A stretch of DNA of 52,228 nt from a virus (IMGVR_UViG_3300007276_000008:1-52228), one strand, 5' to 3'. Shown: positions 7,808 through 29,043, numbered from the stretch's first letter. Numbers and translations: made by a program. The notes: generated by a model not told the origin, from the sequence alone.

Positions 7808-7812
7808 AAACA

Positions 7813-8052
7813 ATGGAACAAAAAACAACAGTTAAACGAACAAACAAAGTACAGCAAGTTTTAAACCACTTAAAAGCGCATGGGCAAATTACTTCCATGC
7901 ATGCAATTAACCTTTATTCGGCTACCAGATTAGCTGCAATTATTTTTGTCTTACGGGAACGAGGACACAATATTGAAACTAAAATGGTAAAAAAATTAGA
8001 CATAAATGGCTGGCCGTGCCAATATGCACTGTATCTTTATTCAAATAAATAA
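7813..8052 (+). CDS. Winged helix-turn-helix DNA-binding protein (track start 7789)
   Basis: VLNHLK..ITSMHA..RLAAIIFVLRERGHNIET is a phage wHTH pattern. Confidence 0.7.
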   Translation: MEQKTTVKRTNKVQQVLNHLKAHGQITSMHAINLYSATRLAAIIFVLRERGHNIETKMVKKLDINGWPCQYALYLYSNK

Positions 8053-10921: not shown

Positions 10922-11259
10922 AAATGAATATAGTTGTTAAATTAGAATTAGAGGGTTTGCACCATTGGCCAAATTGTCCATTGCCTGAAGTTGCATATTT
11001 AAAGGATTTGCATAGGCATATTTTCCACATAGTTGCCAAAAAGGAAGTAATGCATTCTGACAGAGATGTGGAAATTATAATGTTTAAAAAACTACTAAAA
11101 GTATATTTGGTAAAACAATATTGGGATACGGATTATAAGTGCTGCAATTTTAGAACATTAAGTTGTGAAGCTATTGCGGAGGAATTATTAACAACATTTA
11201 AACTAACCTTTTGCAGCGTTTTAGAGGATAACGAAAACGGTGCTGAAATAACAAACTAA
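10918..11259 (+). CDS. dpdL: QueD-like T-fold protein, DpdL-like (proposed CDG decarboxylase)
   Basis: EGLHHW..LKDLHRHIF fits the LxxxHRHxF signature I recall for DpdL; C-terminal SCEAIAE..EDNENG; coupled to folE. Confidence 0.7.
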   Translation: MKMNIVVKLELEGLHHWPNCPLPEVAYLKDLHRHIFHIVAKKEVMHSDRDVEIIMFKKLLKVYLVKQYWDTDYKCCNFRTLSCEAIAEELLTTFKLTFCSVLEDNENGAEITN

Positions 11260-11260
11260 C

Positions 11261-12271: not shown

Positions 12272-12287
12272 ATAAAAACCAAACCAA

Positions 12288-13289: not shown

Positions 13290-14064
13290 TAACACAAATA
13301 ATTCAGCCGGAATGTGTAAGGAGTTAGGGCTGTTTAAATTACATAGTATTTTAAATGAGAAAAAGGATATTGAGAATTGGGACGACAAGCACTTTTTAAT
13401 GGTTGACAGCGGTGCTCATAGTTGGAATAAGGCTCACATGCACCACGTTGGAATGAAGGGTAAAACAAAGCTACCTGACCCTAAAGTGTTTTTGGAAACT
13501 TACATTAAATTTATTAAAAAGCACGCGCACAAAAAATTGGTGTTTGTGGAGTTTGATGTGTATGGCAATTTACCGTATGATTATATCACTGCAAAGTATA
13601 ATGAAATAAAAGCAATACCTGGCAACTTTAAAATAATGCGCGTGTACCACCAAATGCTTGACGGAGGGTCATTACGCGTGTTAAAGGAGTGGATAAATGA
13701 GGGGCAGGATTATATAGGAGTAGGTGCTGATTGCGCGCCAATATTTGATGACGTGTTCGCACTTACAAAAGATAAAGTAAAACTCCACGGATTTGCAATG
13801 ACAAAGCTACCTTATATTACCAAATATCCGTTTTGGAGTGTTGACAGCACCTCGCCTTTAAGCACTGTAATTTTTGGTAGGTACAGCAAACCGGTATTTA
13901 ACTTTAAAGGGCGCGTTGACGTGCATAAAGAAAAGTCAATTGAATGCTTTCACGAGGATACGGAAAGGCTTAGGAACGCACTAATTGAAACAAAAGAAAC
14001 TGAAGATTATATAACAGCATTATGGAAAAAACGACAAGTAATATGGGAAGAATTGAAGTATTAG
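13267..14064 (+). CDS. dpdA: DNA 7-deazaguanine transglycosylase (DpdA/TGT-like)
   Basis: LMVDSGAHS, EFDV, RVYH, YIGVG, KLHGFAMT and SVDSTS motifs of the TGT-like barrel; clustered with folE/queD/queE. Confidence 0.85.
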   Translation: MHIIVAGSNTNNSAGMCKELGLFKLHSILNEKKDIENWDDKHFLMVDSGAHSWNKAHMHHVGMKGKTKLPDPKVFLETYIKFIKKHAHKKLVFVEFDVYGNLPYDYITAKYNEIKAIPGNFKIMRVYHQMLDGGSLRVLKEWINEGQDYIGVGADCAPIFDDVFALTKDKVKLHGFAMTKLPYITKYPFWSVDSTSPLSTVIFGRYSKPVFNFKGRVDVHKEKSIECFHEDTERLRNALIETKETEDYITALWKKRQVIWEELKY

Positions 14065-14534
14065 ACATCAACAGCATTAAGTCAGCAGGCTTTAATGTAA
14101 AAAACAAAATTGGCGAACACTTACAAAGCAAGCATGTCAGTTTAATTAAGCAGCATGGCCAAATTAAATTAATTGTGGTTGCACATGTTGAAGGCAATAC
14201 AGTTGTAATAGACGGTGACAAGTATTTAGAAACGTGTAAGGAAGCAGGGTTGTCAAGCGTAAATTGCAAGTCCTTAGGGCATATCACACCTGAAGCTGCA
14301 ATTATATATAGGTTGTTTTTAAACTACCACGAGCAGCGCTTAGACTACATAGGCGTCGCTGAAGCCATGCAGCCATTAAAAGGAAATAAAACGGATAGTG
14401 AACGCATAAGTATACGCACAGGCATACCGTTTAAGGATATTGAAAGGTTTTGTGACTTAATTGATTTTGATTGGAGCCAATACCTAAAGCTAGACGACAA
14501 CAATGCACAAATAGACATGTTCCAAGGTTTATAA
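14043..14534 (+). CDS. ParB/Srx-like N-terminal domain protein, degenerate (track start 14022)
   Basis: SLIKQHGQIKLIVV..VVIDGDKY resembles the ParB-N fold without the GxxR arginine; possible HTH at the C-terminus. Confidence 0.6.
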   Translation: MGRIEVLDINSIKSAGFNVKNKIGEHLQSKHVSLIKQHGQIKLIVVAHVEGNTVVIDGDKYLETCKEAGLSSVNCKSLGHITPEAAIIYRLFLNYHEQRLDYIGVAEAMQPLKGNKTDSERISIRTGIPFKDIERFCDLIDFDWSQYLKLDDNNAQIDMFQGL

Positions 14535-14561
14535 TTTTTTTTGAAGTTTTTTTGTTTTATG

Positions 14562-14593
14562 TTTGGCAGTATTAAAATATTGTATATCTTTAC
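14562..14593 (+). promoter_or_regulatory. Repeated cassette promoter
   Basis: TTTGGCAGTATTAAAATA..TATCTTTAC. Confidence 0.75.
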
Positions 14594-14628
14594 AGTGTAA
14601 TAATAAATTAACTTAAAATTAAAACATC

Positions 14629-14778
14629 ATGAAAAATTTAACAGCAGACGATTTAAAAAGATTATGGTTATTAGCTGATACCAGAGCAGAAGAATGCAAT
14701 GAGGGCAGCAAAACAAAAAAAATATACTCAGAATTATCTGACAAAGTTTGGAACGAATTACAACTAAAAAACAAATAA
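14629..14778 (+). CDS. Hypothetical protein, 49 aa (not in ORF track)
   Basis: MKNLTADDLKRLW..; AAAACATCATG start. Confidence 0.65.
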   Translation: MKNLTADDLKRLWLLADTRAEECNEGSKTKKIYSELSDKVWNELQLKNK

Positions 14779-14783
14779 ACATC

Positions 14784-14966
14784 ATGAACACGACAAGCAA
14801 ATTATTAGAAAAATTATTCGGTCAAGGAAAAAACGCATTTCACAACATGAAAAAATTAGGTGTTAAATCCTATGCTGTTGACAATAACGGTCAAGCCCGA
14901 TTATTTATGTTAAACGGTAAAACAGTTTTTGCAAATACCGTTAATGGTGAATTAAAACGAAACTAA
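14784..14966 (+). CDS. Hypothetical protein (start 14784 rather than 14748)
   Basis: AAACATCATG start context. Confidence 0.65.
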   Translation: MNTTSKLLEKLFGQGKNAFHNMKKLGVKSYAVDNNGQARLFMLNGKTVFANTVNGELKRN

Positions 14967-14975
14967 ACTAACAAC

Positions 14976-14997
14976 GGGCCGCTTCTGGTGGCCCTTT
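14976..14997 (+). terminator. Hairpin/possible terminator
   Basis: GGGCCGC-TTCTG-GTGGCCC-TTT. Confidence 0.5.
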
Positions 14998-15031
14998 AAA
15001 ACTTCTTATTAACTTTCTAAATTCAAATTAA

Positions 15032-15250
15032 ATGAAAAAACTATTAGCAGTATTAATCCTATTACCAACCTTATTAGGTTGCAGCATTTTAAAATCAATT
15101 AACTATGTAACCGTTTGCGCTGAACCGGGTACTATTGTTGAAATATCTAGATACGGTAAGTATAAGGCAAACAACAAAGCAGTGACAAAAAAAGTGGCTG
15201 ATAGTTTATGTTTAAATATTGCATTTAAGCAATACAAAAACAGACAGTAA
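15032..15250 (+). CDS. Small lipoprotein
   Basis: MKKLLAVLILLPTLLG-C lipobox. Confidence 0.65.
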   Translation: MKKLLAVLILLPTLLGCSILKSINYVTVCAEPGTIVEISRYGKYKANNKAVTKKVADSLCLNIAFKQYKNRQ

Positions 15251-15747
15251 TGGCATTCAAAAGCAGCAAATTATTCAGCGGGTATTCCGTAGCATTAAGG
15301 CAACATAAGGCACAGCATAGCCACTGCCAATTATTGCACGGATACGCGCTTGAATTTTACATTGAATTTGAACCAATACCAAAATTTGAAAAAAACGCAT
15401 CTGAACCGTCTGGTTGGGAAGAGATGCCAGGTGAATTAGACGAAATGAATTGGGTAGTTGATTTTGGAGGTTTTAAGCGTAATGGCTTAAAGGAGTGGAT
15501 GGACAGCATGTTTGACCATACTGTTTTAATTGAGAAAGATGACCCTTATTTGGACTACTTTTTAGGAATGAATGGTGAGGGTATTGCAAAAGTAATTCCG
15601 TTGGATATGATGGGCGCTGAAGCACTTGCAAAACTTGTCTACGATAAATTTAATGACGTATTAAGTAAAACAGATGGCGGGCGCTGTCGTGTTATTAAAG
15701 TTGAATGCCGCGAAAACAAAAATAATAAAGGAATTTATACAAGATGA
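15250..15747 (+). CDS. queD: 6-carboxy-5,6,7,8-tetrahydropterin synthase
   Basis: HCQLLHGY (CxxxHG), VVDFG, FDHTVL and GAEALA motifs. Confidence 0.92.
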   Translation: MAFKSSKLFSGYSVALRQHKAQHSHCQLLHGYALEFYIEFEPIPKFEKNASEPSGWEEMPGELDEMNWVVDFGGFKRNGLKEWMDSMFDHTVLIEKDDPYLDYFLGMNGEGIAKVIPLDMMGAEALAKLVYDKFNDVLSKTDGGRCRVIKVECRENKNNKGIYTR

Positions 15748-16004
15748 AAACACTAAAAGCACCAAACGAGGTGATATTGTCAATTTGGGAAACTGAACTC
15801 AAATTAAGGAATAAAAACAACGAAATCCAATGCGTGGTTAATGTAGGTACTACAATTGACGTTGGTGACGTTATTATAGGAGGTATGATGGACGGAGGTG
15901 TTAGTACTTACGAAGTTTTAGAAATAGTGGAAACGCGTCCTGCTGCATTAAGTAACAAAACACTTTACAAACTAAAAACCCATTGGGCTAAAAAAGCAAA
16001 CTAA
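15744..16004 (+). CDS. Hypothetical protein between queD and queE
   Basis: Translationally coupled on both sides. Confidence 0.65.
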   Translation: MKTLKAPNEVILSIWETELKLRNKNNEIQCVVNVGTTIDVGDVIIGGMMDGGVSTYEVLEIVETRPAALSNKTLYKLKTHWAKKAN

Positions 16005-16699
16005 TGAAGCAGCAATTAATAGTCGCAGAAAAGTTTTACAGTATACAAGGCGAGGGCGTTACCTCAGGAATTCCTGCTGTATTTTTACGCCTAAGCGCGT
16101 GTAATTTATTATGCAAATCAGAGCATTGGATATGTGATTCGATAGCAAGCTGGCAGCCTAAGGGTACAAAAACGCCTTATGACGAGGTATTAACCGGTGA
16201 GCTTTTGGAGCAGCTACAAAAAGGCGCGCACTTAGTTATCACAGGAGGTGAACCTTTATTGCAACAAAAGCATATTGTGAAATACATAACTTGGTTTTTA
16301 GTTAAACATGGATTTAAACCAATTATTGAAATTGAAACCAATGGTACGCTGCTACCAAACGAGCATTTAATAGGATACGTGGATTATTGGAATTGCTCGC
16401 CTAAATTAGCAAACAGTGGTGAAACGCATAAAAGGCGCGTGAACAAAATTGCTATACGGGAACTAAACAAGCATAACACCATATTCAAGTTTGTTATAAC
16501 TGAAAAAACTGACTTTCTTAATATTTTACAGGACTATGACATTATTGATATGAAAAAATTAGTGCTGATGCCTGGTGGAGATACGCGTTTTAAGTTAGCA
16601 AAAACCAGACCAATTGTAGCTGAACTATGTAAGGAAATGGGACTCCGTTACAGTGACAGGTTGCAAGTTGTAATATGGAATGAATCTTTAGGAGTATAA
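16004..16699 (+). CDS. queE: 7-carboxy-7-deazaguanine synthase (radical SAM)
   Basis: FYSIQGEG, FLRLSACNLLC..CDS (Cx3Cx6C variant), ITGGEPL, IETNGT and SPK motifs. Confidence 0.95.
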   Translation: MKQQLIVAEKFYSIQGEGVTSGIPAVFLRLSACNLLCKSEHWICDSIASWQPKGTKTPYDEVLTGELLEQLQKGAHLVITGGEPLLQQKHIVKYITWFLVKHGFKPIIEIETNGTLLPNEHLIGYVDYWNCSPKLANSGETHKRRVNKIAIRELNKHNTIFKFVITEKTDFLNILQDYDIIDMKKLVLMPGGDTRFKLAKTRPIVAELCKEMGLRYSDRLQVVIWNESLGV

Positions 16700-16759: not shown

Positions 16760-17569
16760 ATGAGTAATTTAAGCACAGACGTCGTTGACGTCAAAAAGCC
16801 CGCAATGTCTATTTTTAACGACATGGAGTCGTTTGCAAACGGACAGCGCATGGCGCAGGTATTGACGCAAAGCAATATCGTACCACAGGGCTATCAAAAC
16901 AACTTACCAAATGTAATGGTAGCGTTGGAATTAGCAAACCGGGTTGGCGTCAGTCCAATTATGGTAATGCAAAATTTAGATATTATTAAAGGAAAGCCAA
17001 GTTGGTCAAGTACTTTTATAATTGCAGTTTTAAACAGTTGCGGTCGTTTTTCACAATTACGTTTTAAATTTGAAGGCACAAAAGGCACACCAGAATACGG
17101 TTGTATTGCATGGGCTACGGATTTAAAAACAGGTGAAACACTTGAAAGTCCAATAGTTGATTGGAAAATGGTACACGCTGAAGGGTGGGTAAACAAAACA
17201 GGAAGCAAGTGGAAAACCATGCCTGATTTAATGTTTCATTACCGTGCCGCAAGTTTCTTTGGTCGCATTTATGCATCAGATATATTAAAAGGAATGCAAA
17301 GCGCTGACGAGGTGTTAGACGTTGCCAATACAGCAATTGAAGTTGAAGTAACTGACGAGGAGTTGGAGCGTATAAAAACATTTATTGCAAAAGCTGAAAC
17401 AGTTAAAAAGCTAGACCAAATAAAGTCACAAATTGGTAATTCCAAATACGAGGAGCTCCTGGATTATTTTGAGGAACGTGAAAAGGAAATCATATTTGAT
17501 GCTGAAGTAAACGAACCTATTATTGTTGAGGGGCAAAGTGAAACTATCCAATTCCCTAAAAACAATTAA
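16760..17569 (+). CDS. RecT/Bet-like single-strand annealing protein
   Basis: VPQGYQ..VMQNLDIIKGKPSWSS..SKWKTMPDLM..RAASFFGR; directly upstream of an exonuclease. Confidence 0.75.
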   Translation: MSNLSTDVVDVKKPAMSIFNDMESFANGQRMAQVLTQSNIVPQGYQNNLPNVMVALELANRVGVSPIMVMQNLDIIKGKPSWSSTFIIAVLNSCGRFSQLRFKFEGTKGTPEYGCIAWATDLKTGETLESPIVDWKMVHAEGWVNKTGSKWKTMPDLMFHYRAASFFGRIYASDILKGMQSADEVLDVANTAIEVEVTDEELERIKTFIAKAETVKKLDQIKSQIGNSKYEELLDYFEEREKEIIFDAEVNEPIIVEGQSETIQFPKNN

Positions 17570-17571
17570 TT

Positions 17572-18639
17572 ATGGCTAATATATTTGACGAATATAAATT
17601 TAGATGCAGTTCACTAGGTAAAATCATGCCTGGTGTACCAAAGCCCTTAACAGCAAACCAACAATCAACTTTTGATAAATTGCAGTTAATTAGAGATGGA
17701 GTAGGCGAACGCTTAACACCTAAGCAAATGGAATTAATGAATAAGCTAGGTGAGCAGTTTGCAAAGGACGAAAAACCCTTAACGGATAAGCAGGTTATTA
17801 CTTATAATGAATTAATGCTTAAGGCACAAACTCCGGTTAGTTTATCGGATTCACAAATTATTTTATATGGTGATTTATTAGCGCGTAAAACTGCAAAGCC
17901 AATATTGACTTCTGGAGTAAAAAAGTATTTAACCAAATTAGTTTGGGAACATTTAAGCAACCGTTCCACGTACTTACAAAACAAGTATTTAACTAAAGGT
18001 AATGTCGTAGAGGAAAAAAGTATGACAGCTTATGCAAACCAAAAGGATAGTTTAATACTTAAAAACCAGGATACAAAAGAAAACGATTATATTTCCGGTA
18101 CATGTGATATAGCACGTTATAAAATTAGGGATATAAAATCAAGCTGGAATTGGCAAACATTTCCACTGACCGAGGATACTATTCCAACAAGTGATTATGA
18201 ATGGCAATTAGACGGTTATATGTGGTTGTGGCAGTTGCAGCGTGGTGAATTAATTTACTGTTTAGTTGACACGCCTTTTGACTTAGTTGATGACGAGGTA
18301 CGCAAATTGGATTGGAAGTATAAAATAATGTCTATTGGAGGTGAGGTAAAGGAGGAGTGCATAGACCTTGTTGTAGAAGTAGTTAGTGGGCTCATTTACA
18401 CGTTTAAAGGACTGGAGGAGTATTGCGCACAAAGCACGCAAATAAATTTAGAATGGTTCGTAGGGCGTTTTAAAGAGGTGCCTGAAGAAATACGCGTAAA
18501 AGTGTTTCAGCACAATATGGAAGAGGAGCGTATTGACCAACTAAAAATAATGATTGAATTAGCGCGTGAATACATGAACAAAATTGTAGATGAAATTGGC
18601 GACAACGCCTTTATACTACATGAAGCAGTATTAAAATAA
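17572..18639 (+). CDS. YqaJ/lambda-Exo-like PD-(D/E)xK exonuclease
   Basis: RCSSLGKIM, KGNVVEE, GTCDI..DIKSSW and YEWQLDGYMWL motifs. Confidence 0.82.
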   Translation: MANIFDEYKFRCSSLGKIMPGVPKPLTANQQSTFDKLQLIRDGVGERLTPKQMELMNKLGEQFAKDEKPLTDKQVITYNELMLKAQTPVSLSDSQIILYGDLLARKTAKPILTSGVKKYLTKLVWEHLSNRSTYLQNKYLTKGNVVEEKSMTAYANQKDSLILKNQDTKENDYISGTCDIARYKIRDIKSSWNWQTFPLTEDTIPTSDYEWQLDGYMWLWQLQRGELIYCLVDTPFDLVDDEVRKLDWKYKIMSIGGEVKEECIDLVVEVVSGLIYTFKGLEEYCAQSTQINLEWFVGRFKEVPEEIRVKVFQHNMEEERIDQLKIMIELAREYMNKIVDEIGDNAFILHEAVLK

Positions 18640-19930: not shown

Positions 19931-20685
19931 ATAATACGTGGGTAAAACTACATAGGAGTATGATTAATTGGGAGTGGTTTGATGAGGATAACTGTTTGCG
20001 GCTTTTAATTTATTTAATTATTTCCGTAAATTATGAAGATAAAAAGTGGCGAGGTAATGTTATAAAAAAGGGTCAAATAGCATGCAGTTTGGCAAAGCTA
20101 TCCGAGTCAAATAACATGTCGGTACAAACTTTGCGAACAACGCTGAATAGGCTAGAGGATTCGGGAGAGGTAACACTGCAATCAACAAGCAAATTTACTA
20201 TCATAACCCTAGTTAAATGGGACAAAATGCAACAAACCCAACAAGCAACTAACAAACAACTAACAAACAACCAACAAACAACTAACAAACAATCAACAAA
20301 GACTAAAGAAGTAAAGAAAGAAAGAAATAAAGAAAATAAAAAAAATATAACAAAAAAAAGTTTGTTTAATTTCCGGAAAAGTTTAATCCAACTTGGTGTT
20401 GAGGAAATTGTCGCAGCTGATTACATGCTGGTCAGAAAAAACAAAAAAGCAACCAACAGTGAAACGGCGTTTAATGCGCTAAAAAAGCAAATGGAATTAT
20501 CAAACCTATCCAACAATGAAATTATAAAAATTTGCGCTGAAAACAGTTGGTCTGGGTTTAAAAGCCAATGGCTTAAAAATTTAAACAGCAAAAATAACAA
20601 CCAGGAAATCCCTATAAACCAGCGCTACGGCAAGGACAGCAACTATGACAAACTGTCTGAGCAGCTTAAAAAACTGAATAATTAA
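19927..20685 (+). CDS. Replication initiator (lambda O/DnaD-like organisation)
   Basis: WVKLHR N-terminus, wHTH, low-complexity linker with DNA repeats; upstream of a DnaC-like ATPase. Confidence 0.75.
   Translation: MNNTWVKLHRSMINWEWFDEDNCLRLLIYLIISVNYEDKKWRGNVIKKGQIACSLAKLSESNNMSVQTLRTTLNRLEDSGEVTLQSTSKFTIITLVKWDKMQQTQQATNKQLTNNQQTTNKQSTKTKEVKKERNKENKKNITKKSLFNFRKSLIQLGVEEIVAADYMLVRKNKKATNSETAFNALKKQMELSNLSNNEIIKICAENSWSGFKSQWLKNLNSKNNNQEIPINQRYGKDSNYDKLSEQLKKLNN
20246..20300 (+). repeat. Five tandem 11-bp repeats; putative iterons/origin
   Basis: CAACTAACAAA three times plus CAACCAACAAA and CAATCAACAAA; followed by an A-rich tract. Confidence 0.65.
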
Positions 20686-20702
20686 TTTAAAAAACCAAAA
20701 AC

Positions 20703-20891
20703 ATGGAAAGAGGTAAAGGTGAAACATTTGCGCAATATAAAGCACGCAGAAAGCTGCAACAAGGTAATATTAAGCGTCATAGACGCGGCAAATGGTTTTT
20801 CATAAGTAAGACGTTAAAAGGAAGTCAAACGTTCACGAGAGAGGGTCTAATGAAGTCAAAGGAGGCTGAAAAAGCACAAAGCAATGGATAA
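20703..20891 (+). CDS. Small basic hypothetical protein
   Basis: K/R-rich ORF overlapping the next start. Confidence 0.6.
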   Translation: MERGKGETFAQYKARRKLQQGNIKRHRRGKWFFISKTLKGSQTFTREGLMKSKEAEKAQSNG

Positions 20892-21516
20892 AATAAATTT
20901 AGACAGCATTTTAAATAGCAAGGAATATCCTAAAAGCCGCGTGCCTATTGAATATGTCACAAAAAGAATGAAGGAATTAGGTTATGTTTTTAGTAAGGAA
21001 AATAAAGATATTGCGCTTTTGGTAGTTTGGTATTTTTTGCGTGACCCACTTTTTTTAGAAAGCAAATTAGTAAAAAACGGAAACTCCTTTGGTAAGGGAT
21101 TAATAATTTACGGCACGTATGGAATAGGTAAAAGCATGCTATTTGAAACGCTTCATAAAATAGGCAAGGAATTAATTTTAGAAAGAGGAATATCCGACTT
21201 ATGGTTTGTAACATGTTCAGCCGCTGCTTATGTGGAGGATTATATGCAGCATGACGGTACGCGCTTAGGCATTAAGGAAATGTATAAAGGCAAACTATAT
21301 ATAGACGATTTAGGCTTTGAAAAAAAAGTATACAATAAAACGGAATTACTTTCGGATATACTGTTTGAACGCAACCGCGCAAAAACTATGACGTTTGTCA
21401 CTACCAACTTAACACCACACGAGGTGTTTGAACGCTATGGGCAAAGGATAGCGGATAGGATACCTGAAATGTTTAATGTTATACAGTGGGAGGGTGAAAG
21501 TTTACGTAAATTTTAA
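20884..21516 (+). CDS. DnaC/IstB-like AAA+ helicase loader
   Basis: Walker A GTYGIGKS, Walker B YIDDLG, TTNL and RYGQRIADR motifs. Confidence 0.85.
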   Translation: MDKINLDSILNSKEYPKSRVPIEYVTKRMKELGYVFSKENKDIALLVVWYFLRDPLFLESKLVKNGNSFGKGLIIYGTYGIGKSMLFETLHKIGKELILERGISDLWFVTCSAAAYVEDYMQHDGTRLGIKEMYKGKLYIDDLGFEKKVYNKTELLSDILFERNRAKTMTFVTTNLTPHEVFERYGQRIADRIPEMFNVIQWEGESLRKF

Positions 21517-21533
21517 AAAAAAACATTTTATTA

Positions 21534-21565
21534 TTTGGTAGTATTAAAATAAAGTATATCTTTAC
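21534..21565 (+). promoter_or_regulatory. Repeated cassette promoter
   Basis: TTTGGTAGTATTAAAATAA..TATCTTTAC. Confidence 0.75.
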
Positions 21566-21594
21566 AGAGTAATAATAATTTAAAATCAAACATC

Positions 21595-21723
21595 ATGAAC
21601 AATCAAAAATTAATTCAAGTTTTACAAAATCATTATGATAATGGTAAAATCAGTAGCAACCAATTTATTCAAGCGATTAAAGATTTAAACAGCGACTCAG
21701 TTATTCAAGCGATTAAAAATTAA
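21595..21723 (+). CDS. Hypothetical protein, 42 aa (not in ORF track)
   Basis: AAACATCATG start; internal duplication TTATTCAAGCGATTAAA. Confidence 0.55.
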   Translation: MNNQKLIQVLQNHYDNGKISSNQFIQAIKDLNSDSVIQAIKN

Positions 21724-21728
21724 ACATC

Positions 21729-22193
21729 ATGAAACAAACAAAAAAACAAGCAGCGGCTGAACGGGTTAGAAACCTTATCGCTCAAATGGAACAAAACACA
21801 TTTCTATTTCCTAAAGGGTGGTCCGACACTATACAAATGACGCATTTTGAATGGGCTTACCGAGCGTATCATGCAGGGCATGTCGGAGATGCGCGCTACC
21901 ACAATGTAGAAATTTTTCTTTTAGGTAAAAAGATAATGGAAATTGCTTTTCGAGGTAATAAAATAGAGGTGCAGCAAGATTTATCACAAAAAGCTGTTAC
22001 CATTGATGAAGTAGAATATTATATTACGGAAATTTACAATGAAATGCACACCTTTAAAAACCATGCTTCTGGAGTTCGTGAAATAAGAAAAAAACTTGTT
22101 GACAAGCTGCAAAGTATTAAGCAGTTAAATAACGAGGTGCAGGATTTGAAACAGCAAATTTGTCATTCAAAACAACATAAACATCATGGATAA
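21729..22193 (+). CDS. Hypothetical protein
   Basis: AAACATCATG start; C-terminal coiled coil. Confidence 0.7.
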   Translation: MKQTKKQAAAERVRNLIAQMEQNTFLFPKGWSDTIQMTHFEWAYRAYHAGHVGDARYHNVEIFLLGKKIMEIAFRGNKIEVQQDLSQKAVTIDEVEYYITEIYNEMHTFKNHASGVREIRKKLVDKLQSIKQLNNEVQDLKQQICHSKQHKHHG

Positions 22194-22203
22194 AAACAAA
22201 GCA

Positions 22204-22263
22204 GAGGAGTATGGTAAGCGTGTGGTCGTATCGCGTTGTAAGGTTCGAGTCCTTGCCTCCTCC
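22204..22263 (+). ncRNA. tRNA-like element (T-arm plus acceptor-like stem, no proper D-arm)
   Basis: AAGG-TTCGAGT-CCTT T-arm and GAGGAG/CTCCTC closing stem. Confidence 0.4.
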
Positions 22264-22284
22264 CTAATATTAAATTGATAAAAA

Positions 22285-22512
22285 ATGAGTAGAAACAAAT
22301 ACAAAACGCATGCCAAAAAAACGGAGAAGCAAGGCGATGATAGTTTTGCAGCCAAAGCAGCATTTTTCTCCTTAGTAGGTTTAGTCTTAATAATTGTATT
22401 TTTAAAATTCAGAGAAATGAGCCCCGAACACCAACTTACAGCAACCGTTATCATTATCGCATGCAGTTTGGCTGCATTTATATATATTAAACTTAAAAAC
22501 CCTTTAGAATGA
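22285..22512 (+). CDS. Small two-TM membrane protein
   Basis: Two hydrophobic segments. Confidence 0.6.
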   Translation: MSRNKYKTHAKKTEKQGDDSFAAKAAFFSLVGLVLIIVFLKFREMSPEHQLTATVIIIACSLAAFIYIKLKNPLE

Positions 22513-22652
22513 AGAAACCAATTAAAAAGCATTAACAGCAAAAACAGAGGCATGATAACAGTAATTGACAGCGACACGCAATTAACAATTGGCCTAGTAG
22601 TTTGCATGCTGGTAATATTAGTAGGCTATTATATTAAAAGCATATTAAAAAA

Positions 22653-22841
22653 ATGAGAATGCAAATAACAACCAAGGAAGTCCATAAGAATGGGCGTGTG
22701 GACGTAATCACACCAGAACAGGAAATTGACTGTTGGACAGTAGGACACGCAACTGAAGTAATATTCCAACTATTGGATACTATCGCAGTACTAAAAAAAT
22801 TTATAGACGACAAGGAAGCGCTAAAAACAAAAACAAAATGA
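22653..22841 (+). CDS. Hypothetical protein
   Basis: Coupled to the next ORF. Confidence 0.55.
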   Translation: MRMQITTKEVHKNGRVDVITPEQEIDCWTVGHATEVIFQLLDTIAVLKKFIDDKEALKTKTK

Positions 22842-23089
22842 AAAAAATATTTATATTATTATTACCTATTACATGTTTGTTAGGATGTGATACCGATGAT
22901 TCATATTCTACTAGATGCGAGGAGTTATTGAATCACTTCAGGATGGAAGTTCTTTACACGGAACTCACATATGACCAAGCTATAGATAGCGCTATAATTC
23001 GCGAGATATATGAAGATTATTATGACGCTGGTACAGACCATGGGTGCGTAGTTAGGGATAAGTATACTGAACTTAATTTTTTAAGATAA
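22838..23089 (+). CDS. Small lipoprotein
   Basis: MKKIFILLLPITCLLG-CDTDD lipobox followed by an acidic stretch. Confidence 0.65.
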   Translation: MKKIFILLLPITCLLGCDTDDSYSTRCEELLNHFRMEVLYTELTYDQAIDSAIIREIYEDYYDAGTDHGCVVRDKYTELNFLR

Positions 23090-23118
23090 TAAATGTATAA
23101 AAACTAAAACACAAAAAT

Positions 23119-23271
23119 ATGGCAATAAAAGTAAAGGCAGACGGAGAACCAAACGTTTGGATAATATTTGACGACAAGGATAATTGGTTAGCAAAGGTAC
23201 AGTTTAATGGTGAAGTAACAGTGCCAACGCAACAAGAGCTCTTAAATGTAGTTATACAGGCATTAATTTAA
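23119..23271 (+). CDS. Hypothetical protein, 50 aa (not in ORF track)
   Basis: MAIKVKADGEPNVW..; A-rich start. Confidence 0.55.
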   Translation: MAIKVKADGEPNVWIIFDDKDNWLAKVQFNGEVTVPTQQELLNVVIQALI

Positions 23272-23351
23272 AAAACACCAATCTAGTGCAAGGCAAGCAG
23301 CCTAAACCTGATAACAAATAAAGTATTATATTAAAAAGGAATTACGATACT

Positions 23352-23927
23352 ATGGAACTACTACCTAAAGAAATAGCAAAGGACTTTAAAAGCAAAAGAC
23401 AAATACTATTTATTCAAGAATACGTAAAAGACCGTAATGGTACACAGGCAGCAATAAGGGCAGGATATACTAAAAAAAATGCAAAAGTGTCAGCGTCACA
23501 ACTGCTAACGAAGCCTAACATACAAAAGGGTATTAACTACCTTTATGAGCAAATTAGGATTAGAAATGAGGTGGGAATTGATGAAGTCATAGCTGTCTTA
23601 GCGTCACAATTACGGTTTGATATTGCGGAGTTGTTTGATGAGAATGACAATTTAAAAAGCGTTCATGACATACCTTTGCACATGCGTAATAGTATAGAAG
23701 AGATAACGGTAAACGAGATATGGGAACATGACAGGGACGGCAATAGGATACAAACGGGCGTCACTAAAAAGATTAAAACAGCAAGCAGGCAAGGTGCTGC
23801 TAAAATGTTATTGCAGCACTTAGGCGCGTTCGCAAAGCATAACAAGCAAAAGCGTACTCAGGTAGCAGTTTTTAACATGCCTGACAATAATAGGGTAATA
23901 AATGTAAAAGAAAATGAAGAAAATTAA
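23352..23927 (+). CDS. terS: Terminase small subunit
   Basis: RQILFIQEYVKDRNGTQAAIRAGY..ASQLLTKPNI is the classic TerS HTH signature. Confidence 0.92.
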   Translation: MELLPKEIAKDFKSKRQILFIQEYVKDRNGTQAAIRAGYTKKNAKVSASQLLTKPNIQKGINYLYEQIRIRNEVGIDEVIAVLASQLRFDIAELFDENDNLKSVHDIPLHMRNSIEEITVNEIWEHDRDGNRIQTGVTKKIKTASRQGAAKMLLQHLGAFAKHNKQKRTQVAVFNMPDNNRVINVKENEEN

Positions 23928-24013
23928 AAAAAAATTATCCTAGTGTTTACGGAGCCTGAGTCAGCATTATACACGCGATAGACAAAAAAGATTTGAATTA
24001 TTTTTAGATAATG

Positions 24014-24046
24014 TTTGGCAGTTAGTAAGATAAGTTATATATTTAC
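24014..24046 (+). promoter_or_regulatory. Repeated promoter driving the non-coding unit
   Basis: TTTGGCAGTTAGTAAGATAAGTTATATATTTAC. Confidence 0.75.
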
Positions 24047-24102
24047 AGTGTTAAACAGTAATAAAAGTTCTTAAACATATTGAAACAACAAAGCAAGTAA
24101 AC

Positions 24103-24201
24103 TGGTAACGATTGGCGTCTGACCTCAACACTATCTTATAACTTGCTTTTTTAAATAACAGTTGAATTGGTAACGATGGGCGTCTGACCTCCACACTATC
24201 T
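24103..24201 (+). repeat. Two 34-nt direct repeats (24103-24136 and 24168-24201)
   Basis: TGGTAACGAT(T/G)GGCGTCTGACCTC(A/C)ACACTATCT; 32/34 identical. Confidence 0.9.
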
Positions 24202-24940
24202 CAGGAACTGTAAATTAAAAACCCTGGACAAACTTTGTATTTGGCAGTAACATTTAAAACAAACTTGGTGGAAACCTCTTCGGAGATAAAACAATTCCAA
24301 TGGAAACAACAAAATGTGAATAGCTGAATGTTTGGAAACAAATTTACGAAAGGAGCAAATTAGGAAAGTTGCAAGATGCAGCAAGTACGACGCTAGGGTT
24401 TTTTTTTTAAATATATAATTTTAGCAATAGTAAGTAAGTGGTTATTCGGAATAGCACCACGTAAAACTATACACCGAGGAAAAAAGTAGGCTATATTGCA
24501 AAATTACAATTTAAAAAGTGCGCTGAATTATTTGTTATTACAGTAAGGAAAGTAGGATAATTTTTTTAGGAAAATTTTAAGGTAGCGTTATTAGAGTTAC
24601 AACGTTAAAAGGTCGTTCCTTTTTAGGCTCATGCACCATTATAAGTCTTATAAGTACTGAATTATTAACTATACAGTAGGCGCGCTTTTTTACAAACTTA
24701 AAAAAGTGCAACGGAGTTGATGCGCTTTGGTTATAACTGCAATGTAAAGACATTATAAGTTTCAAGCTAATGGACAAACAGTCCTACACCTTAGGGTTTA
24801 TGTTAGTGTTCCTTATAAGCAGCCAAAGAGAAGTAAATGACTAATTACCATTTGCAGCATTTAAACAAGTACGAAGTCGGCCACTTCACGATTATAGCAC
24901 GGAAATATAGGCCAATGCATTCCCCAGATTAATAGCAGTT

Positions 24941-24970
24941 AAGGCTCACTTTAAATAGTGGGCTTTTTCT
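24941..24970 (+). terminator. Intrinsic terminator of the non-coding unit
   Basis: AAGGCTCACT-TTAAAT-AGTGGGCTTT followed by TTCT. Confidence 0.75.
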
Positions 24971-25116
24971 GTTTAGGAAAGTTTTCAAGAAAATGTTTGG
25001 TAGTTGTAAAGATAGTTCGTAATTTTATTGTTGGTGCTCTGCTCTGAAATTTGCATGCTCCATTATTACTATATATATATAGTGTAAAAATTAATTTGCT
25101 TTTTTTCATAAATAAA

Positions 25117-25148
25117 TTTGGCAGTATTAAAATAATTGCTATCTTTAC
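25117..25148 (+). promoter_or_regulatory. Repeated cassette promoter
   Basis: TTTGGCAGTATTAAAATAA..TATCTTTAC. Confidence 0.75.
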
Positions 25149-25189
25149 AGTGTTGCAATATTGCAGCTATAATTTAAACATCACGCATC

Positions 25190-25615
25190 ATGAAAACATC
25201 AGCACAAATTGTTCAAGATTTAAAATCAGAATTAGACAACTCCATTAACCATTTGCAAAAAGACATTTCGCATCATATGGAGAGATTAAACAGCAACTTT
25301 TTATTCAACGCCAAATGGGTGTTTGAGGATACGCTAAAAAGCAACCTTAAATTAAAGGAATTAAGTTTGTTATTGGAAACACTACACCAAGAGGATATTA
25401 CAAAGTCCAACGGAGAGGTTTTAAAGGGTACAGACCAGAACAGACTACTTTGGTTCAGACAAGCTGTAAAACACTTAGAAGCGTTTACCTCTAAAAGCCA
25501 CAACGTAATGAGCAGCTCAACCTGTTCAGTTACTAACTTACAAACCACATTGACATTTATGGTTAAGTTAGAGGTTCAAGAGGAAATGAATCACTTACTA
25601 AATTTTTACTCATAA
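25190..25615 (+). CDS. Hypothetical helical protein
   Basis: Follows the promoter; ACATCAC..CATCATG start. Confidence 0.7.
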   Translation: MKTSAQIVQDLKSELDNSINHLQKDISHHMERLNSNFLFNAKWVFEDTLKSNLKLKELSLLLETLHQEDITKSNGEVLKGTDQNRLLWFRQAVKHLEAFTSKSHNVMSSSTCSVTNLQTTLTFMVKLEVQEEMNHLLNFYS

Positions 25616-25812
25616 TGTATGTCAAAAACGACAAGGTTAGTTATACAATTTCCGAACTAAACGGAGGCGGGGAGTGGGTTCAAGTGCAATACCAAGGAAC
25701 TATTTCCCGCATAATCCAAGCGCCAAACGGGCTACAAATAATGGAAACTAACCACGGGCATAAACTGCATATAAGGAACTCAAAACTAAACAACGATGAC
25801 AAATCCATATAA
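25615..25812 (+). CDS. Hypothetical protein
   Basis: TAATG coupling. Confidence 0.6.
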   Translation: MYVKNDKVSYTISELNGGGEWVQVQYQGTISRIIQAPNGLQIMETNHGHKLHIRNSKLNNDDKSI

Positions 25813-26083
25813 AACTAGGTGTTCGTGCTGTTCAGCGCATGTATCGTTAACAGCGCGCGACTTACCAGGCAATAACGATAGTGAAGGTAATTTGTGTGAA
25901 TGCTGCTACGGTGAGCATGAATTGCAAGCATGGCTGGAGATGCATAACATGTTTGATTTAATTGCAAAAGCAATAAGGAGCCCTATAAGCGCTTTAAAAT
26001 GGCAATACAGCTCAGACGCTGCAAAATGGTATCACTGCCAACAGTTAATGCGGAGAGGTGTAATAAAGTGGCAAATATCATAA
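25796..26083 (+). CDS. Cys-rich putative Zn-finger protein
   Basis: CSCC..CECC. Confidence 0.6.
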   Translation: MTNPYKTRCSCCSAHVSLTARDLPGNNDSEGNLCECCYGEHELQAWLEMHNMFDLIAKAIRSPISALKWQYSSDAAKWYHCQQLMRRGVIKWQIS

Positions 26084-26092
26084 AACAAAATT

Positions 26093-26314
26093 ATGAAAAT
26101 TAAATTAGTAGAGGAAACAGAAGAAACTATTAGAAAAAGGAACAATGAAAGACTTGTTTTAGAAAGTATGGAATTGCACGAAATGATTGACATAGGTGAT
26201 AGGTTTAATAGCTATAAGGTTATGCGTGTCCATGGTGGTTGGCTATACACATATCACAGATTAGACAAAAGTATAATGACAACAACATTTGTTCCTTTTA
26301 ATCAAAATGGTTAG
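26093..26314 (+). CDS. Hypothetical protein
   Basis: A-rich start; co-oriented. Confidence 0.65.
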   Translation: MKIKLVEETEETIRKRNNERLVLESMELHEMIDIGDRFNSYKVMRVHGGWLYTYHRLDKSIMTTTFVPFNQNG

Positions 26315-26319
26315 TAGTT

Positions 26320-26475
26320 ATGAAAGAATTACAAAAATTAAAAGAGGAAGTAAAAGAAGCAAGGCAATTAATGGTTTGGCATAGACCTAATAAAGATGCG
26401 ATAGGTACAATGTATTACTATTGGGAAGAAAAAAAAGACAATGCTTTGCGTAAAATAAATGAGTTAAGAAATTAA
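26320..26475 (+). CDS. Hypothetical protein, 51 aa (not in ORF track)
   Basis: MKELQKLKEEVKEARQ..; fills the gap between neighbouring genes. Confidence 0.55.
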   Translation: MKELQKLKEEVKEARQLMVWHRPNKDAIGTMYYYWEEKKDNALRKINELRN

Positions 26476-26492
26476 ACTAAACAAATAGAACA

Positions 26493-26879
26493 ATGAAACT
26501 AACAGAAAAGTGTAAAAAGGATTTTGAGAAGTGGTATTTTAAACATCATGTAACAACAACTAAAAAGTTTAAAGATTTATACCCACATGAGTATCATGAA
26601 ATATATGATTGGTTTTATGGTATTGATTTGTCTTTTCAATACGGAGTGTATGTAGACTTCTTTGATAGTGTTGGAATTATAATTGATATTCAACCTTTAT
26701 TAGATTATGATGATAAACAATATACTAATATTTATAGTGTTTATGGAAATATAATTAAGTTAAATTTTCCACAAGAAGAGAATTATAACAGAAACCCTTT
26801 TGAATGCAAAACACGCCAAGAAGCAAGAACAAAAGCAATAGAAAAAGCTGATGAAATATTTAATTCACTAAACAAATAG
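26493..26879 (+). CDS. Hypothetical phage protein
   Basis: Aromatic-rich; flanked by a 21-bp direct repeat. Confidence 0.7.
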   Translation: MKLTEKCKKDFEKWYFKHHVTTTKKFKDLYPHEYHEIYDWFYGIDLSFQYGVYVDFFDSVGIIIDIQPLLDYDDKQYTNIYSVYGNIIKLNFPQEENYNRNPFECKTRQEARTKAIEKADEIFNSLNK

Positions 26880-26883
26880 AACA

Positions 26884-27171
26884 ATGACACAACTAACATT
26901 TGAACAGTATTTATGTGAAAGATTTAATTGTATTAGGTCAGTATTACAAAATGAGATAACTAAAAATCCAACTAAAGTAATTTCTTATGGAACTGACTAT
27001 GCGAATAATAATTTTGAACACCGGGTAAATGAGATAAGTGATGAAGCTATTGAAAAAGGGTTAGATGCACATAAAGAATCTGAAATGAAGTATAGTTATG
27101 ATATGGAAAAAAGACAAGAGGGTGCGAAATGGTTTAAAGAACAACTAATAAAAAATAAGCATAATGGCTGA
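26884..27171 (+). CDS. Hypothetical protein
   Basis: Co-oriented; overlaps the next gene. Confidence 0.65.
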   Translation: MTQLTFEQYLCERFNCIRSVLQNEITKNPTKVISYGTDYANNNFEHRVNEISDEAIEKGLDAHKESEMKYSYDMEKRQEGAKWFKEQLIKNKHNG

Positions 27172-27571
27172 ATTAAAACTACAAGGTCCTAAGATGCATT
27201 CTGACATAACTAAAAAATTAAACAGCATAAACAAGCCACAAACATACCTCCACAACAAATTAAGCATATCGCGTTCAACGCTGTGGCGCTTAAATGTAGG
27301 TAGGCCAATAACGCTTGAAACCTTTATGCTGCTACTAGGTTGGTTGGATGCGCCTGCTGACAAATATATAAACAGCGGGAGGACAAATGGGAGGACAATA
27401 TATGTTACGGAAACAAGCAACCAGGAATTAAAGGAGCGATGGGGTGTTCCATGCTATTACAAAAGCAAAGTATATATCAGATGCAATGCCGCAAAAATAA
27501 TTAATTGGGATAAAGCCGTTGTTTACGGTGCTTTAGAACTGCTAACCAAAAATAATGTGGAAATAATTTAA
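27164..27571 (+). CDS. XRE-like HTH protein
   Basis: QTYLHNKLSISRSTLWRLNVGRPITLETFMLLLGWL. Confidence 0.65.
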   Translation: MAELKLQGPKMHSDITKKLNSINKPQTYLHNKLSISRSTLWRLNVGRPITLETFMLLLGWLDAPADKYINSGRTNGRTIYVTETSNQELKERWGVPCYYKSKVYIRCNAAKIINWDKAVVYGALELLTKNNVEII

Positions 27572-27578
27572 AAAAAGC

Positions 27579-27610
27579 CTTGGCAGTGTAAAAATGTTTT
27601 ATATCTTTAC
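27579..27610 (+). promoter_or_regulatory. Repeated cassette promoter
   Basis: CTTGGCAGT..TATCTTTAC. Confidence 0.7.
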
Positions 27611-27641
27611 AGTGTAATAATAACTAAAAATATATAAAATT

Positions 27642-28577
27642 ATGTCAACAACAACAAAAAATCAAGCAGCAAAGTCAGGAAACAGTGTAGAAGCAGTAAT
27701 GGCAACTACCAACGCTGACAGCAAAAACATCGCAACGGTTGAAGCTCAACTATATGATGTAGTAAAAATGAAAATGAGAAGTCCTAAAACGGGATTTAGA
27801 GCAGCACAAAATTCTTTTGGTATTTGGAAAGCAGAAGGAGGTGACTGTTTAGGAGTTGTAGGAAAAGGTACTATACCAACGCAACCAAAATTTTTATTAA
27901 GCGCAGTATTAAACACCGCACTCCAAACACCAGGAGTATTTGACTTGTCAACTTTAAAGTTTAGAGAACGTAATGGTGGCAGCCGAATTGAATTTAGTGT
28001 AAAAATGGCTCCAATAGTTGTGCCTACAAAACTAAAAGTGGACGACGTTACGGAAGTGGAATTATTATTTTCAACGTCATACAACAATGAGCAAGCAAAC
28101 AGGATTGAAATGTTAACCACTAGATGTGTTTGCGACAACCAAATGGTAATGAAATTCCGCTCCTCTTCCTTAACAGTTAAAAACACAAAAAACTCCGAAG
28201 GGCAAATTGAAAAGTACTTTTACGATATTGCTAAAATATTAGACGAGGTGGATGTGGTAACAGAGGAGATGATAAAGTTAGCAGGTACAAAAGTAAACGA
28301 CAATGATATTGAGCGCTTAATTTGCAAAACATTTGAATTGCATACCAACGTTGAAGACCGTAAAAGTAGAGAAATCAACAGACACATAAGCATAATGGAA
28401 AGCGTTAATTTAGAAATTGAGCGCACAGGAAAAACAGCGTTTGGATTGATGCAAGGAATAACGCACTACATTAACCATGTAGTAGGCGCAGACAAAGACG
28501 CTGACTATTGCGTTACAGGAAACGGTAATAAGTGGGCGCAGCGCATGCAAAAACACCTTATGCCAATGGTTAAATAG
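27642..28577 (+). CDS. DUF932-like phage/plasmid protein
   Basis: LGVVG..Q, GGSRI, TSYN..RCVCDNQM and TAFGLMQGITHYINH match the family pattern. Confidence 0.75.
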   Translation: MSTTTKNQAAKSGNSVEAVMATTNADSKNIATVEAQLYDVVKMKMRSPKTGFRAAQNSFGIWKAEGGDCLGVVGKGTIPTQPKFLLSAVLNTALQTPGVFDLSTLKFRERNGGSRIEFSVKMAPIVVPTKLKVDDVTEVELLFSTSYNNEQANRIEMLTTRCVCDNQMVMKFRSSSLTVKNTKNSEGQIEKYFYDIAKILDEVDVVTEEMIKLAGTKVNDNDIERLICKTFELHTNVEDRKSREINRHISIMESVNLEIERTGKTAFGLMQGITHYINHVVGADKDADYCVTGNGNKWAQRMQKHLMPMVK

Positions 28578-28597
28578 CAACTAACCAAAACAGTATT

Positions 28598-28629
28598 AAA
28601 AGCAGCGTTTCAAAAGCGCTGCTTTTTTT
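28598..28629 (+). terminator. Intrinsic terminator
   Basis: AAAAGCAGCG-N8-CGCTGCTTTT followed by a T run. Confidence 0.75.
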
Positions 28630-28682
28630 GTTGCATGATATAATAATATTGCATACCTTTACACAAATCAAAATTAATTTAT

Positions 28683-28862
28683 ATGAAGCATATTATCGTA
28701 ATACAAAAAGACAGGCAAGTAGAAACCTATGGCAGTTTAACCGGCGCATGTAAAGCGCACAAGGATTTCCAATACCATTCAATTAAGATGCTGTCGTTTC
28801 CTTTTGAACACAAAGGTTGGGTATTCCACAAAACAGACCATAACATAAAAATTGTAAAGTAG
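28683..28862 (+). CDS. Small hypothetical protein, 59 aa, possibly DNA-binding (not in ORF track)
   Basis: ETYGSLTGACKAH.. resembles small NUMOD/HTH-like modules. Confidence 0.55.
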   Translation: MKHIIVIQKDRQVETYGSLTGACKAHKDFQYHSIKMLSFPFEHKGWVFHKTDHNIKIVK

Positions 28863-29043
28863 TTATACAATATTAGCGCAGCGCTTAATTCAAGCTGAAA
28901 TTATTGCCCTCAATAAAAGCCTAGCTAGGTTAAGCGCAGCGGCTAATAGAGAAACAAACTTAAAAGCGCATAATATAACACCCACAAAGCAAAACCCTCT
29001 TAAAAGGGCTCTTTTAGCAATATGAAATTATTTTTAAATAATA

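Follow-up and report, generated by a model that had tools for sequence, protein, structure and literature searches.

A candidate phage non-coding RNA with twin hairpins in a gene-free gap downstream of the small terminase gene

What does a phage make from one of its conserved promoters when that promoter stands before some 0.9 kb of DNA without a protein gene? Positions 24014-24970 of the window raise this question, the window being the whole stretch of DNA analysed here, a complete virus record of 52,228 nt (IMGVR_UViG_3300007276_000008) that has an exact 123-nt terminal repeat and carries nearly all of its long ORFs on the plus strand. A sequence-only reading of the locus had proposed a promoter-to-terminator unit giving rise to an array of about five structured RNAs. 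Our best reading is that of a new, unclassified phage ncRNA with twin hairpins, not of a five-RNA array, and with a function that we can only infer.

The gap, its promoters and its terminator

The large terminase TerL of the phage (8058-9557; Pfam Terminase_6N, 8.1e-23) has relatives of 34-64% identity at 16 loci in bacterial genomes; 15 of these are titled with taxa that we take to be placed in Bacteroidota (Aquimarina, Flavicella, Emticicia, Sphingobacterium, Dysgonomonas, Flavobacterium, Hymenobacter, Bacteroides and others), and one is labelled Gammaproteobacteria. Among deposited phages, the best full-length TerL matches are Bacteroides phages, at 34% identity. The gene starts of the phage lack Shine-Dalgarno motifs and lie in A-rich contexts, for example AAACATCA; Bacteroidota hosts likewise do without Shine-Dalgarno-led translation, and without the usual RNA chaperones Hfq and ProQ. 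To our knowledge, the ncRNAs of Bacteroidota phages are almost unstudied, and literature searches on these terms found no report of an RNA such as the one proposed here.

The gap at 23928-25189 (1262 nt) is the genome's largest stretch without a plus-strand ATG-ORF of at least 45 aa; the other long gaps by the same measure, of 413 and 757 nt, both fall inside ORFs that start with TTG or GTG. The earlier statement that no plus-strand ORF of 60 aa or more is present holds for the whole interval between 23927 and 25190, where the longest plus-strand ORFs have 30, 28 and 31 aa. Upstream stands the small terminase gene TerS (23352-23927; phrog_51, 1.2e-31), and downstream, at 25190, a gene for a product of 141 aa to which no function is assigned. 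An identical TerS occurs on 11 contigs, and the nearest other TerS relative is 46% identical. In all seven related records that have a TerS homologue (18 searched; read from coordinates), TerS lies directly upstream of TerL, and the locus context of the gap here is therefore lineage-specific.

By every coding test that we ran, the stretch is treated as non-coding, because its coding scores are negative or near zero and neither a family match nor a homologue was found. We trained a 3-periodic Markov model on 50 genes of this phage. For the flanking genes, read in their true frame, it scores +2 to +9 bits per 120 nt, apart from two negative windows where the downstream gene ends. Between 23900 and 25160, nearly all windows are negative in all six frames, with four exceptions at or just above zero; the highest reach +1.5 (minus strand, 24620) and +1.4 (one plus-strand frame, 24740), the latter in a frame interrupted by three stops. 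A decayed gene in 24578-24844 was considered and rejected, since a read-through translation of this segment, with X at the stops, has no homologue in an index of 5.8 billion proteins. Coding score, family searches and read-through search thus all bear out the earlier claim that the unit holds no protein gene.

The promoter at 24014-24050 (plus strand) belongs to a conserved family with six members in the phage, recognised by pattern matches and a six-copy alignment: the pattern TTTGGNAGT-N15-25-TTTAYWGT has six matches in the window against 0.02 expected, and the copies can be aligned over about 50 nt. The sequence-only reading had placed a full copy of a repeated promoter here, correctly, as 24014-24049 is one of the six matches. 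The -33 TTTG of this copy lies at 24014-24017 and its -7 box, TATATTTA, at 24038-24045, the box agreeing at seven of eight positions with the Flavobacterium sigma-A consensus TAnnTTTG. By sequence, the copy has the features of a Bacteroidota sigma-A type promoter, namely a -7 box at -12 to -5 and an upstream TTTG. In its passage on this consensus, PMC9723704 sets the Flavobacterium box at -12 to -5, and from this placement transcription would start at about 24050.

Promoters of the same class also stand in front of protein operons at 7025, 9581, 14562 and 25117. Two copies lie just beyond the unit (24996-25151, plus strand; pattern matches and alignment) and are missing from the sequence-only reading: one, at 24996-25031, is degenerate in its -7 box and precedes an AT palindrome and a T7 run, and the other, at 25117-25151, is complete, stands before the gene at 25190 and presumably drives it. 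Because the downstream genes have these promoters of their own (24996 and 25117), a leader role for the unit is not needed.

The unit ends in a strong intrinsic terminator at 24941-24970 (plus strand), in which a stem of ten pairs, four of them GC, occupies 24941-24966 and is followed, after its own TTT, by the T tail TTCTGTTT. It folds at -18.5 kcal/mol (z = -7.0), and none of 200 shuffles is as good. The earlier reading had described a clean terminator at this place, and a GC-containing hairpin directly before a T run is indeed what is found.

The twin hairpins

Hairpin 1 (24090-24149, plus strand), which is seen in the folds and in flank pairing statistics, has a 9-bp closing stem, 24090-24098/24141-24149, around a 37-nt core at 24100-24136, and a U run follows it. 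Judged against 20,000 random genome positions, a 9-bp Watson-Crick run between the flanks, in any register, has a P of about 1e-4. Hairpin 2 (24158-24211, plus strand), its paralogue by core identity, stem register and paired changes, has a 6-bp closing stem, 24158-24163/24206-24211, around a core at 24165-24201. The closing stem of hairpin 2 has another sequence than that of hairpin 1 and the same register (P = 1.5e-4 for the fixed register), such that in both copies the core is separated from the stem by 1 nt on its 5' side and by 4 nt on its 3' side. The 28-nt stretch between the repeats is made up of the inner arms of the two closing stems.

The two 37-nt cores, spaced 65 nt apart, are 92% identical, with three differences. 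In a gap-free alignment of 64 columns there are 18 differences, which fall on 3 of the 37 core columns against 15 of the 27 flank columns (Fisher p = 4.5e-5). In the core, the changes U24113 to G24178 and A24127 to C24192, two of the three there, together turn a U-A pair of the inner helix into G-C. In an 18-pair structure derived from these same sequences, and thus with covariation from two paralogous copies only, 94.4% of cells are paired and five pairs are changed on both sides, whereas sliding the partners by 1-3 columns as a control leaves 36-56% of cells paired and 0-1 pairs changed on both sides. The ensemble centroid of the 349-nt RNA retains both hairpins as well as a closing helix at 24217-24227/24393-24403. 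A covariance model of the hairpin pair finds only the two copies in the window, the next match, at 19 bits, being the antisense of copy 1. We believe that 24090-24149 and 24158-24211 are real paralogous hairpins. As the same 37-nt element stands twice on scaffolds of variable sequence, the arrangement has the pattern typical of elements that are read by a sequence-specific partner.

It could be argued that the gap is evolutionary debris, in which promoter and terminator modules have been duplicated and are decaying, and that it does nothing beyond insulating transcription. The gap does contain promoter segments in second copy: 24001-24045 recurs at 24983-25027, 24139-24158 at 25092-25111, and a partial -33 copy lies at 24239-24249. 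Neither relatives nor a folding signal were found. However, decay would not hold a 37-nt core at 92% identity while both closing stems re-pair in the same register, and we consider this explanation improbable.

An element working at the level of DNA, such as a pac site, a replication priming site or an origin at the 37-nt repeats and A/T tracts, with transcription being incidental, also seems rather improbable to us. The small terminase gene ends 170 nt before the repeats and helicase-loader genes are 2.5 kb away, direct repeats in AT-rich DNA are a frequent form of terminase and initiator sites, and the two strands of the hairpin pair fold about equally well (z = -0.66 on the plus strand and -0.09 on the minus strand). 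Yet sites bound as double-stranded DNA need neither self-complementary flanks nor compensatory changes, and here there are two repeats only, with a strong promoter of their own and an RNA boundary downstream. A replication origin was rejected on the ground of GC skew, which makes no turn at the gap.

The RNA boundary and the sequence beyond it

Three metatranscriptomic RNA-Seq runs (X10, X12 and X13, under three study codes and maybe from one campaign) were chosen for holding this stretch. Compared over 20000-29000, their RNA contigs match the window without mismatch at 24070-24396 (X10), 24169-24398 (X12) and 24192-24396 (X13), and all three stop 1-3 nt before a run of ten Ts; 25 further letters of the X10 contig beyond 24396 are presumably Illumina adapter. 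A contig of the DNA run X11 (24328-24475) crosses the T10 run, and 97-100% of the stretch's words are present in six DNA runs. By the contigs of the three metatranscriptome runs, at least the first ~350 nt of the unit probably exist as RNA, with the proviso that strand, level and true ends are beyond the reach of assembled contigs and that DNA carry-over is possible. That these runs cover the stretch is to be expected from the way in which they were picked; the shared right-hand end of the RNA contigs was no part of the run selection, and a common stop at a point where the DNA continues is a weak hint of an RNA end.

Divided into 30 bins, the 9 kb compared is covered in 11, 8 and 3 of them by the three RNA runs, and 24410-24970 is represented by one 151-nt contig only (24750-24900, X10), the uncovered parts supporting no conclusion. 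Contig depths are 8.6, 14.2 and 3.2 for the RNA against 2-4.7 for the listed gene pieces, figures that allow no expression ranking.

The T10 run itself (24399-24408, plus strand), which by the contig ends is the 3' boundary of the metatranscriptome RNA, is the genome's longest T run. It does not qualify as an intrinsic terminator, as its local fold is -6.9 kcal/mol, against -14 to -19 kcal/mol for six canonical terminators of the phage, and no local hairpin abuts it. The sole helix that reaches the run is the long-range one at 24217-24227/24393-24403, and the RNA 3' end may therefore arise by unusual termination or by trimming back to this helix. The sequence-only reading had missed this boundary, which splits the unit at about 24400, and likewise that the first two of its domains are copies of each other.

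The long-range helix closes a 3' domain of the RNA (24217-24403, plus strand), which is supported by the presence of the helix in both MFE and centroid structures and by the three RNA runs; its fold has a z of -0.98, and that of its interior is uncertain. The domain holds a UUCG-loop hairpin and three occurrences of TGGAAAC, against 0.09 expected in 24052-24400. Beyond it, the remaining 3' part of the unit (24410-24940, plus strand) was assessed by fold z-scores (-0.65, +0.36 and +0.53), by coding score, which is at or below about zero, and by the one RNA contig. It carries TTATAAG four times (24639, 24648, 24753 and 24813) against 0.16 expected, an over-representation that stands at about 0.02 once corrected for the 797 7-mers tested. 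Apart from this motif and duplicated promoter fragments, the part has no remarkable feature. These ~560 nt are without support as structured RNA or as coding sequence, and they are best seen as read-through tail, spacer or decayed sequence.

How, then, does the array of five RNAs fare? The self-closing domains on which it was based are recovered, in that MFE folds do close 24090-24149, 24158-24211, 24217-24403 and 24417-24505, but their stability is no better than that of dinucleotide shuffles, the stretches folded around the domains having z-scores of -1.89, -0.51, -0.98, -0.65, +0.36 and +0.53. For the whole 919 nt, z is +1.24, with 18 of 20 shuffles as good, and for 24052-24400 it is +1.42, with 94 of 100 as good. 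A folding energy no better than that of dinucleotide-shuffled controls had been named by the earlier reading as something that would refute it, and for the unit as a whole this is the outcome. What survives of the array of structured RNAs is its first two domains, which are hairpins with compensatory changes from one copy to the other; domains 3-5 show no stability above shuffles. Nor did an Rfam search, which had also been suggested, place the unit in a known class: there are no matches at gathering score in the whole window, GOLLD, ROOL, Flavo-1, ribozymes and C4 being among the models searched, and with Rfam 15 at E values up to 10 the interval 23900-25200 gives four chance-level matches, none above one third of the gathering score. 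The earlier observation that none of the domains is a tRNA was right, for ARAGORN finds no tRNA or tmRNA gene in the whole window.

That one 0.9-kb transcript (24014-24970) is processed into about five separately folded RNAs, in the manner of a tRNA operon without tRNAs, is in our estimation very unlikely. A promoter and a strong terminator do bracket the stretch, the MFE folds self-close the named domains with A/T-rich linkers and T runs between them, and one RNA-run contig lies at 24750-24900. Against this, shuffles fold as well as domains 3-5 and the whole unit do, no Rfam match was obtained, there is no sign of processing between domains, and in all three runs the RNA contigs break off at about 24397, well short of the final terminator.

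The ORF scan picked out two overlapping tiny ATG ORFs as candidates in the same tail (24770-24932, plus strand), one at 24770-24844 (24 aa) and one at 24837-24932 (31 aa), which overlap by 8 nt and of which the second stops 9 nt before the terminator. The first has a coding score of no more than +1.4, the second one of -12 to -17. Neither these ORFs nor the minus-strand ORFs of 47-66 aa have a significant Pfam or PHROG family, the tiny ORFs giving no match in Pfam and one weak match (E 0.02) in PHROG. A regulated leader with an attenuator at T10 and read-through expression of these two ORFs would suit their overlap, the closeness of the second to the terminator, the near-zero, not strongly negative, score of the first frame and the RNA-run contig over 24750-24900, but the 31-aa ORF is strongly negative, neither a significant family nor a homologue was found and ORFs this small are expected by chance in 900 nt, and we hold this reading to be very improbable.

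A stand-alone RNA and its relations

On balance we lean towards a functional stand-alone ncRNA of about 350 nt, at about 24050-24400. In the model that we propose, the promoter at 24014-24050 would start transcription near 24050, and the first third of the gap would be an ncRNA gene. After about 350 nt the RNA would reach the helix 24217-24227/24393-24403 and, at 24399-24408, the T10 run; here most molecules would have their end, produced by termination or by trimming as far as the helix. From position +41 it would present two tandem hairpins of about 55-60 nt each, in which the same 37-nt element, composed of the apical loop CGUCUGACC and conserved internal loops, is carried on a closing stem of its own sequence. 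The duplicated element may serve as a pair of docking sites for a partner that reads its sequence, most probably a protein of host or phage; the RNA may then work in trans during the early or middle phase of infection, either as a decoy or as a regulator. The sequence at 24410-24940 would be a lower-level read-through tail or evolutionary debris, closed by the terminator at 24941-24970. What the data show are the promoter family, the hairpins with their paired changes and, by the contigs, the RNA and its 3' boundary. The start site, the way in which the end is made, the binding partner and the action in trans are points that we infer, and the mechanism of a two-site binding platform is put forward tentatively, as something possible and hardly probable.

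Several observations speak against the stand-alone RNA: neither 24052-24400 (z = +1.42) nor the hairpin pair gives a thermodynamic signal, the covariation comes from two copies, the searches returned no homologue, the RNA evidence is that of assembled contigs, the T10 run has no local GC hairpin such as the canonical terminators possess, and no antisense target was found in the phage. When the phage's own transcripts were searched for such a target, ungapped pairing reached 26-27 at best, whereas 200 shuffled cores average 28.2 (sd 2.8), and an antisense regulator of the phage of the P1 c4 or P4 CI type was rejected, its pairing being not above that of shuffled cores. The anti-defence, sponge and ribozyme roles raised by the sequence-only reading are conjecture. 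A protein sponge of the CsrB/RsmZ type finds no echo in the GGA content, which is not enriched (16 GGA in 24052-24970 against 17.0 expected; 8 against 6.4 in 24052-24400).

A bolder version of the model would make this RNA a new class of counter-defence or host-takeover RNA of Bacteroidota phages: a twin-element decoy to which, soon after infection begins, a dimeric RNA-binding protein or nuclease of the host is lost, with the long-range helix and the U run protecting its 3' end, and with the rest of the gap holding further fast-evolving RNA modules of the same kind. We regard this as quite unlikely.

Stand-alone small stable phage RNAs include the T4 species 1 and 2 RNAs, the phi29 packaging RNA and the P1 c4 and P4 CI RNAs, and it is like these that the candidate RNA would probably work, while its anatomy resembles that of HK022 put or of T7 RNase III sites. 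In common with the stand-alone RNAs it has a size in the range of ~100-350 nt, its own strong promoter, a gene-free gap, an end at a U run and conserved sequence in hairpin loops. Unlike them, it has no Rfam match, and it has no complementary target in the phage, such as c4 and CI possess. In contrast to the phi29 packaging RNA, it does not lie beside the packaging ATPase, TerL being at 8058-9557, and no tRNAs adjoin it.

The HK022 put RNA is a cis-acting antiterminator formed of two stem-loops just downstream of an early promoter. The likeness, by anatomy alone, lies in two tandem stem-loops about 40 nt after the start of a strong promoter, with several U-run sites after them; here, however, the first long U run is where the RNA contigs stop and not a site that they read through, the genes further on are served by promoters of their own, and the two hairpins are paralogues of each other. 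Similarly, the T7 early region carries RNase III processing hairpins that, like those described here, are imperfect, about 55-60 nt long, furnished with internal loops and shared sequence, and located inside a phage transcript, whereas here there are two copies only, both in one ncRNA and none between genes.

GOLLD and ROOL are large ornate RNAs linked with phages (PMC12286853). A gene-free stretch of ~0.9 kb in a lake-water phage is of the GOLLD size class, but no match to GOLLD or ROOL was found up to E = 10, the fold is not above shuffles, and the RNA seen ends after about 350 nt.

Two direct repeats of 37 nt separated by 28 nt also bring to mind a phage mini CRISPR array or RNA anti-CRISPR, all the more as the repeats are closely preceded by the best sub-threshold Rfam match, CRISPR-DR22 (E 0.44; 19.4 bits, with a gathering score of 50). 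Here, however, the "spacer" pairs with sequences outside the repeats and closes each hairpin. A mini CRISPR array or repeat mimic was rejected, as the repeat had no match in species genomes (one exact pattern) and the spacer none, a 22-mer of the 28-nt inter-repeat stretch giving 0 matches in viral contigs. Pseudo-ToxI repeats in phage are mimics of a type III antitoxin, and these too are tandemly repeated RNA elements with a core of about 36 nt. In our case, by contrast, the period is 65 nt, the linkers are unrelated and the units are not head-to-tail repeats of 36 nt; a ToxI-like repeat was set aside on account of this period and of there being two copies only.

In the searches made, from which records very close to the window may be absent, the RNA appears to be an orphan. 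A blastn search of the stretch against 50,697 phage records gave no match, exact core patterns recovered 0 stretches from viral contigs (IMG/VR), and one exact core pattern with 24 fixed bases, which diverged repeats would escape, had 0 matches in 185,579 species genomes. A 17-base loop pattern recovered five stretches from viral contigs, in which the covariance model scores the seeded loop only, at E 0.83 or worse; a 21-mer of the third domain (24217-24403) had 0 matches in the same contigs. The hairpin covariance model (R1) found nothing in 18 TerL-related virus records, in 87 of 167 TerS-related loci (357,815 bases), in 13 Bacteroidota genomes with related prophage terminases or in 151 genomes sampled from the phylum. 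In the 18 TerL-related records, a BLAST search with the stretch yields matches of at most 34 nt, and the one examined lies inside an ORF. TerS and the downstream gene, as single-protein queries, had no relative in viral contigs, and the TerS alignments contain relatives of at most 47% identity only.

The value of the locus is limited by the orphan status of the RNA, by the phage being uncultured and by a function that is only putative, and the claim of a five-part array fails. What the gap gives is a concrete, bounded candidate that has a promoter in front, a pair of sister hairpins inside and, in environmental RNA, an observed end. At the level of DNA, at least half of the stretch's sampled words are present in nine runs, all of them labelled freshwater metagenome, of which six may be the source sample.

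Short repeated motifs and the promoter copy at 24996

Within the candidate non-coding RNA of about 350 nt (about 24050-24400 on the + strand), the motif TGGAAAC occurs three times between 24079 and 24345, against 0.09 occurrences expected, and ATTGAAACAACAAA at 24079 is found again as ATGGAAACAACAAA at 24300. Further 3' in the same gene-free unit, TTATAAG occurs four times in 181 nt (24639, 24648, 24753 and 24813) where 0.16 would be expected, an enrichment whose significance is marginal once corrected; this motif may serve as a binding site for a protein.

Beyond the terminator of the unit, the interval 24996-25106 carries a copy of the repeated phage promoter with a degenerate -7 box. Downstream of this copy come an AT palindrome (25062-25091) and seven consecutive T residues, directly ahead of a full promoter at 25117. 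The copy at 24996 may be defunct, or it may give rise to a transcript of approximately 70 nt.

Terminase genes and the terminal repeat

Approximately 14 kb separate the small terminase gene (TerS, 23352-23927) from the large one (TerL, 8058-9557), and the two are adjacent in all seven related virus records that have a TerS homologue, out of 18 searched. Small ORFs at 7601-8052 are located directly upstream of TerL and might include a second TerS. The record has an exact direct terminal repeat of 123 nt (1-123 and 52106-52228), which may mark a genuine terminus of the genome or result from overlap in the assembly.

7-Deazaguanine and recombination genes

The region 10373-16699 contains, as one set, genes for the synthesis and insertion of 7-deazaguanine: a GTP cyclohydrolase (phrog_2197, 8e-63), QueD-like (1e-30) and QueE-like (3e-52) proteins and, at 13267-14064, a queuine tRNA-ribosyltransferase-like protein (2e-12), together with radical SAM and glycosyltransferase-like proteins. 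This gene content suggests that guanines in the phage DNA are modified by the phage itself. The recombination module encoded within 16760-18639 pairs a RecT-like annealing protein (5e-71) with an exonuclease (8e-42), and DnaD-like and DnaC-like replication genes are found downstream of it.
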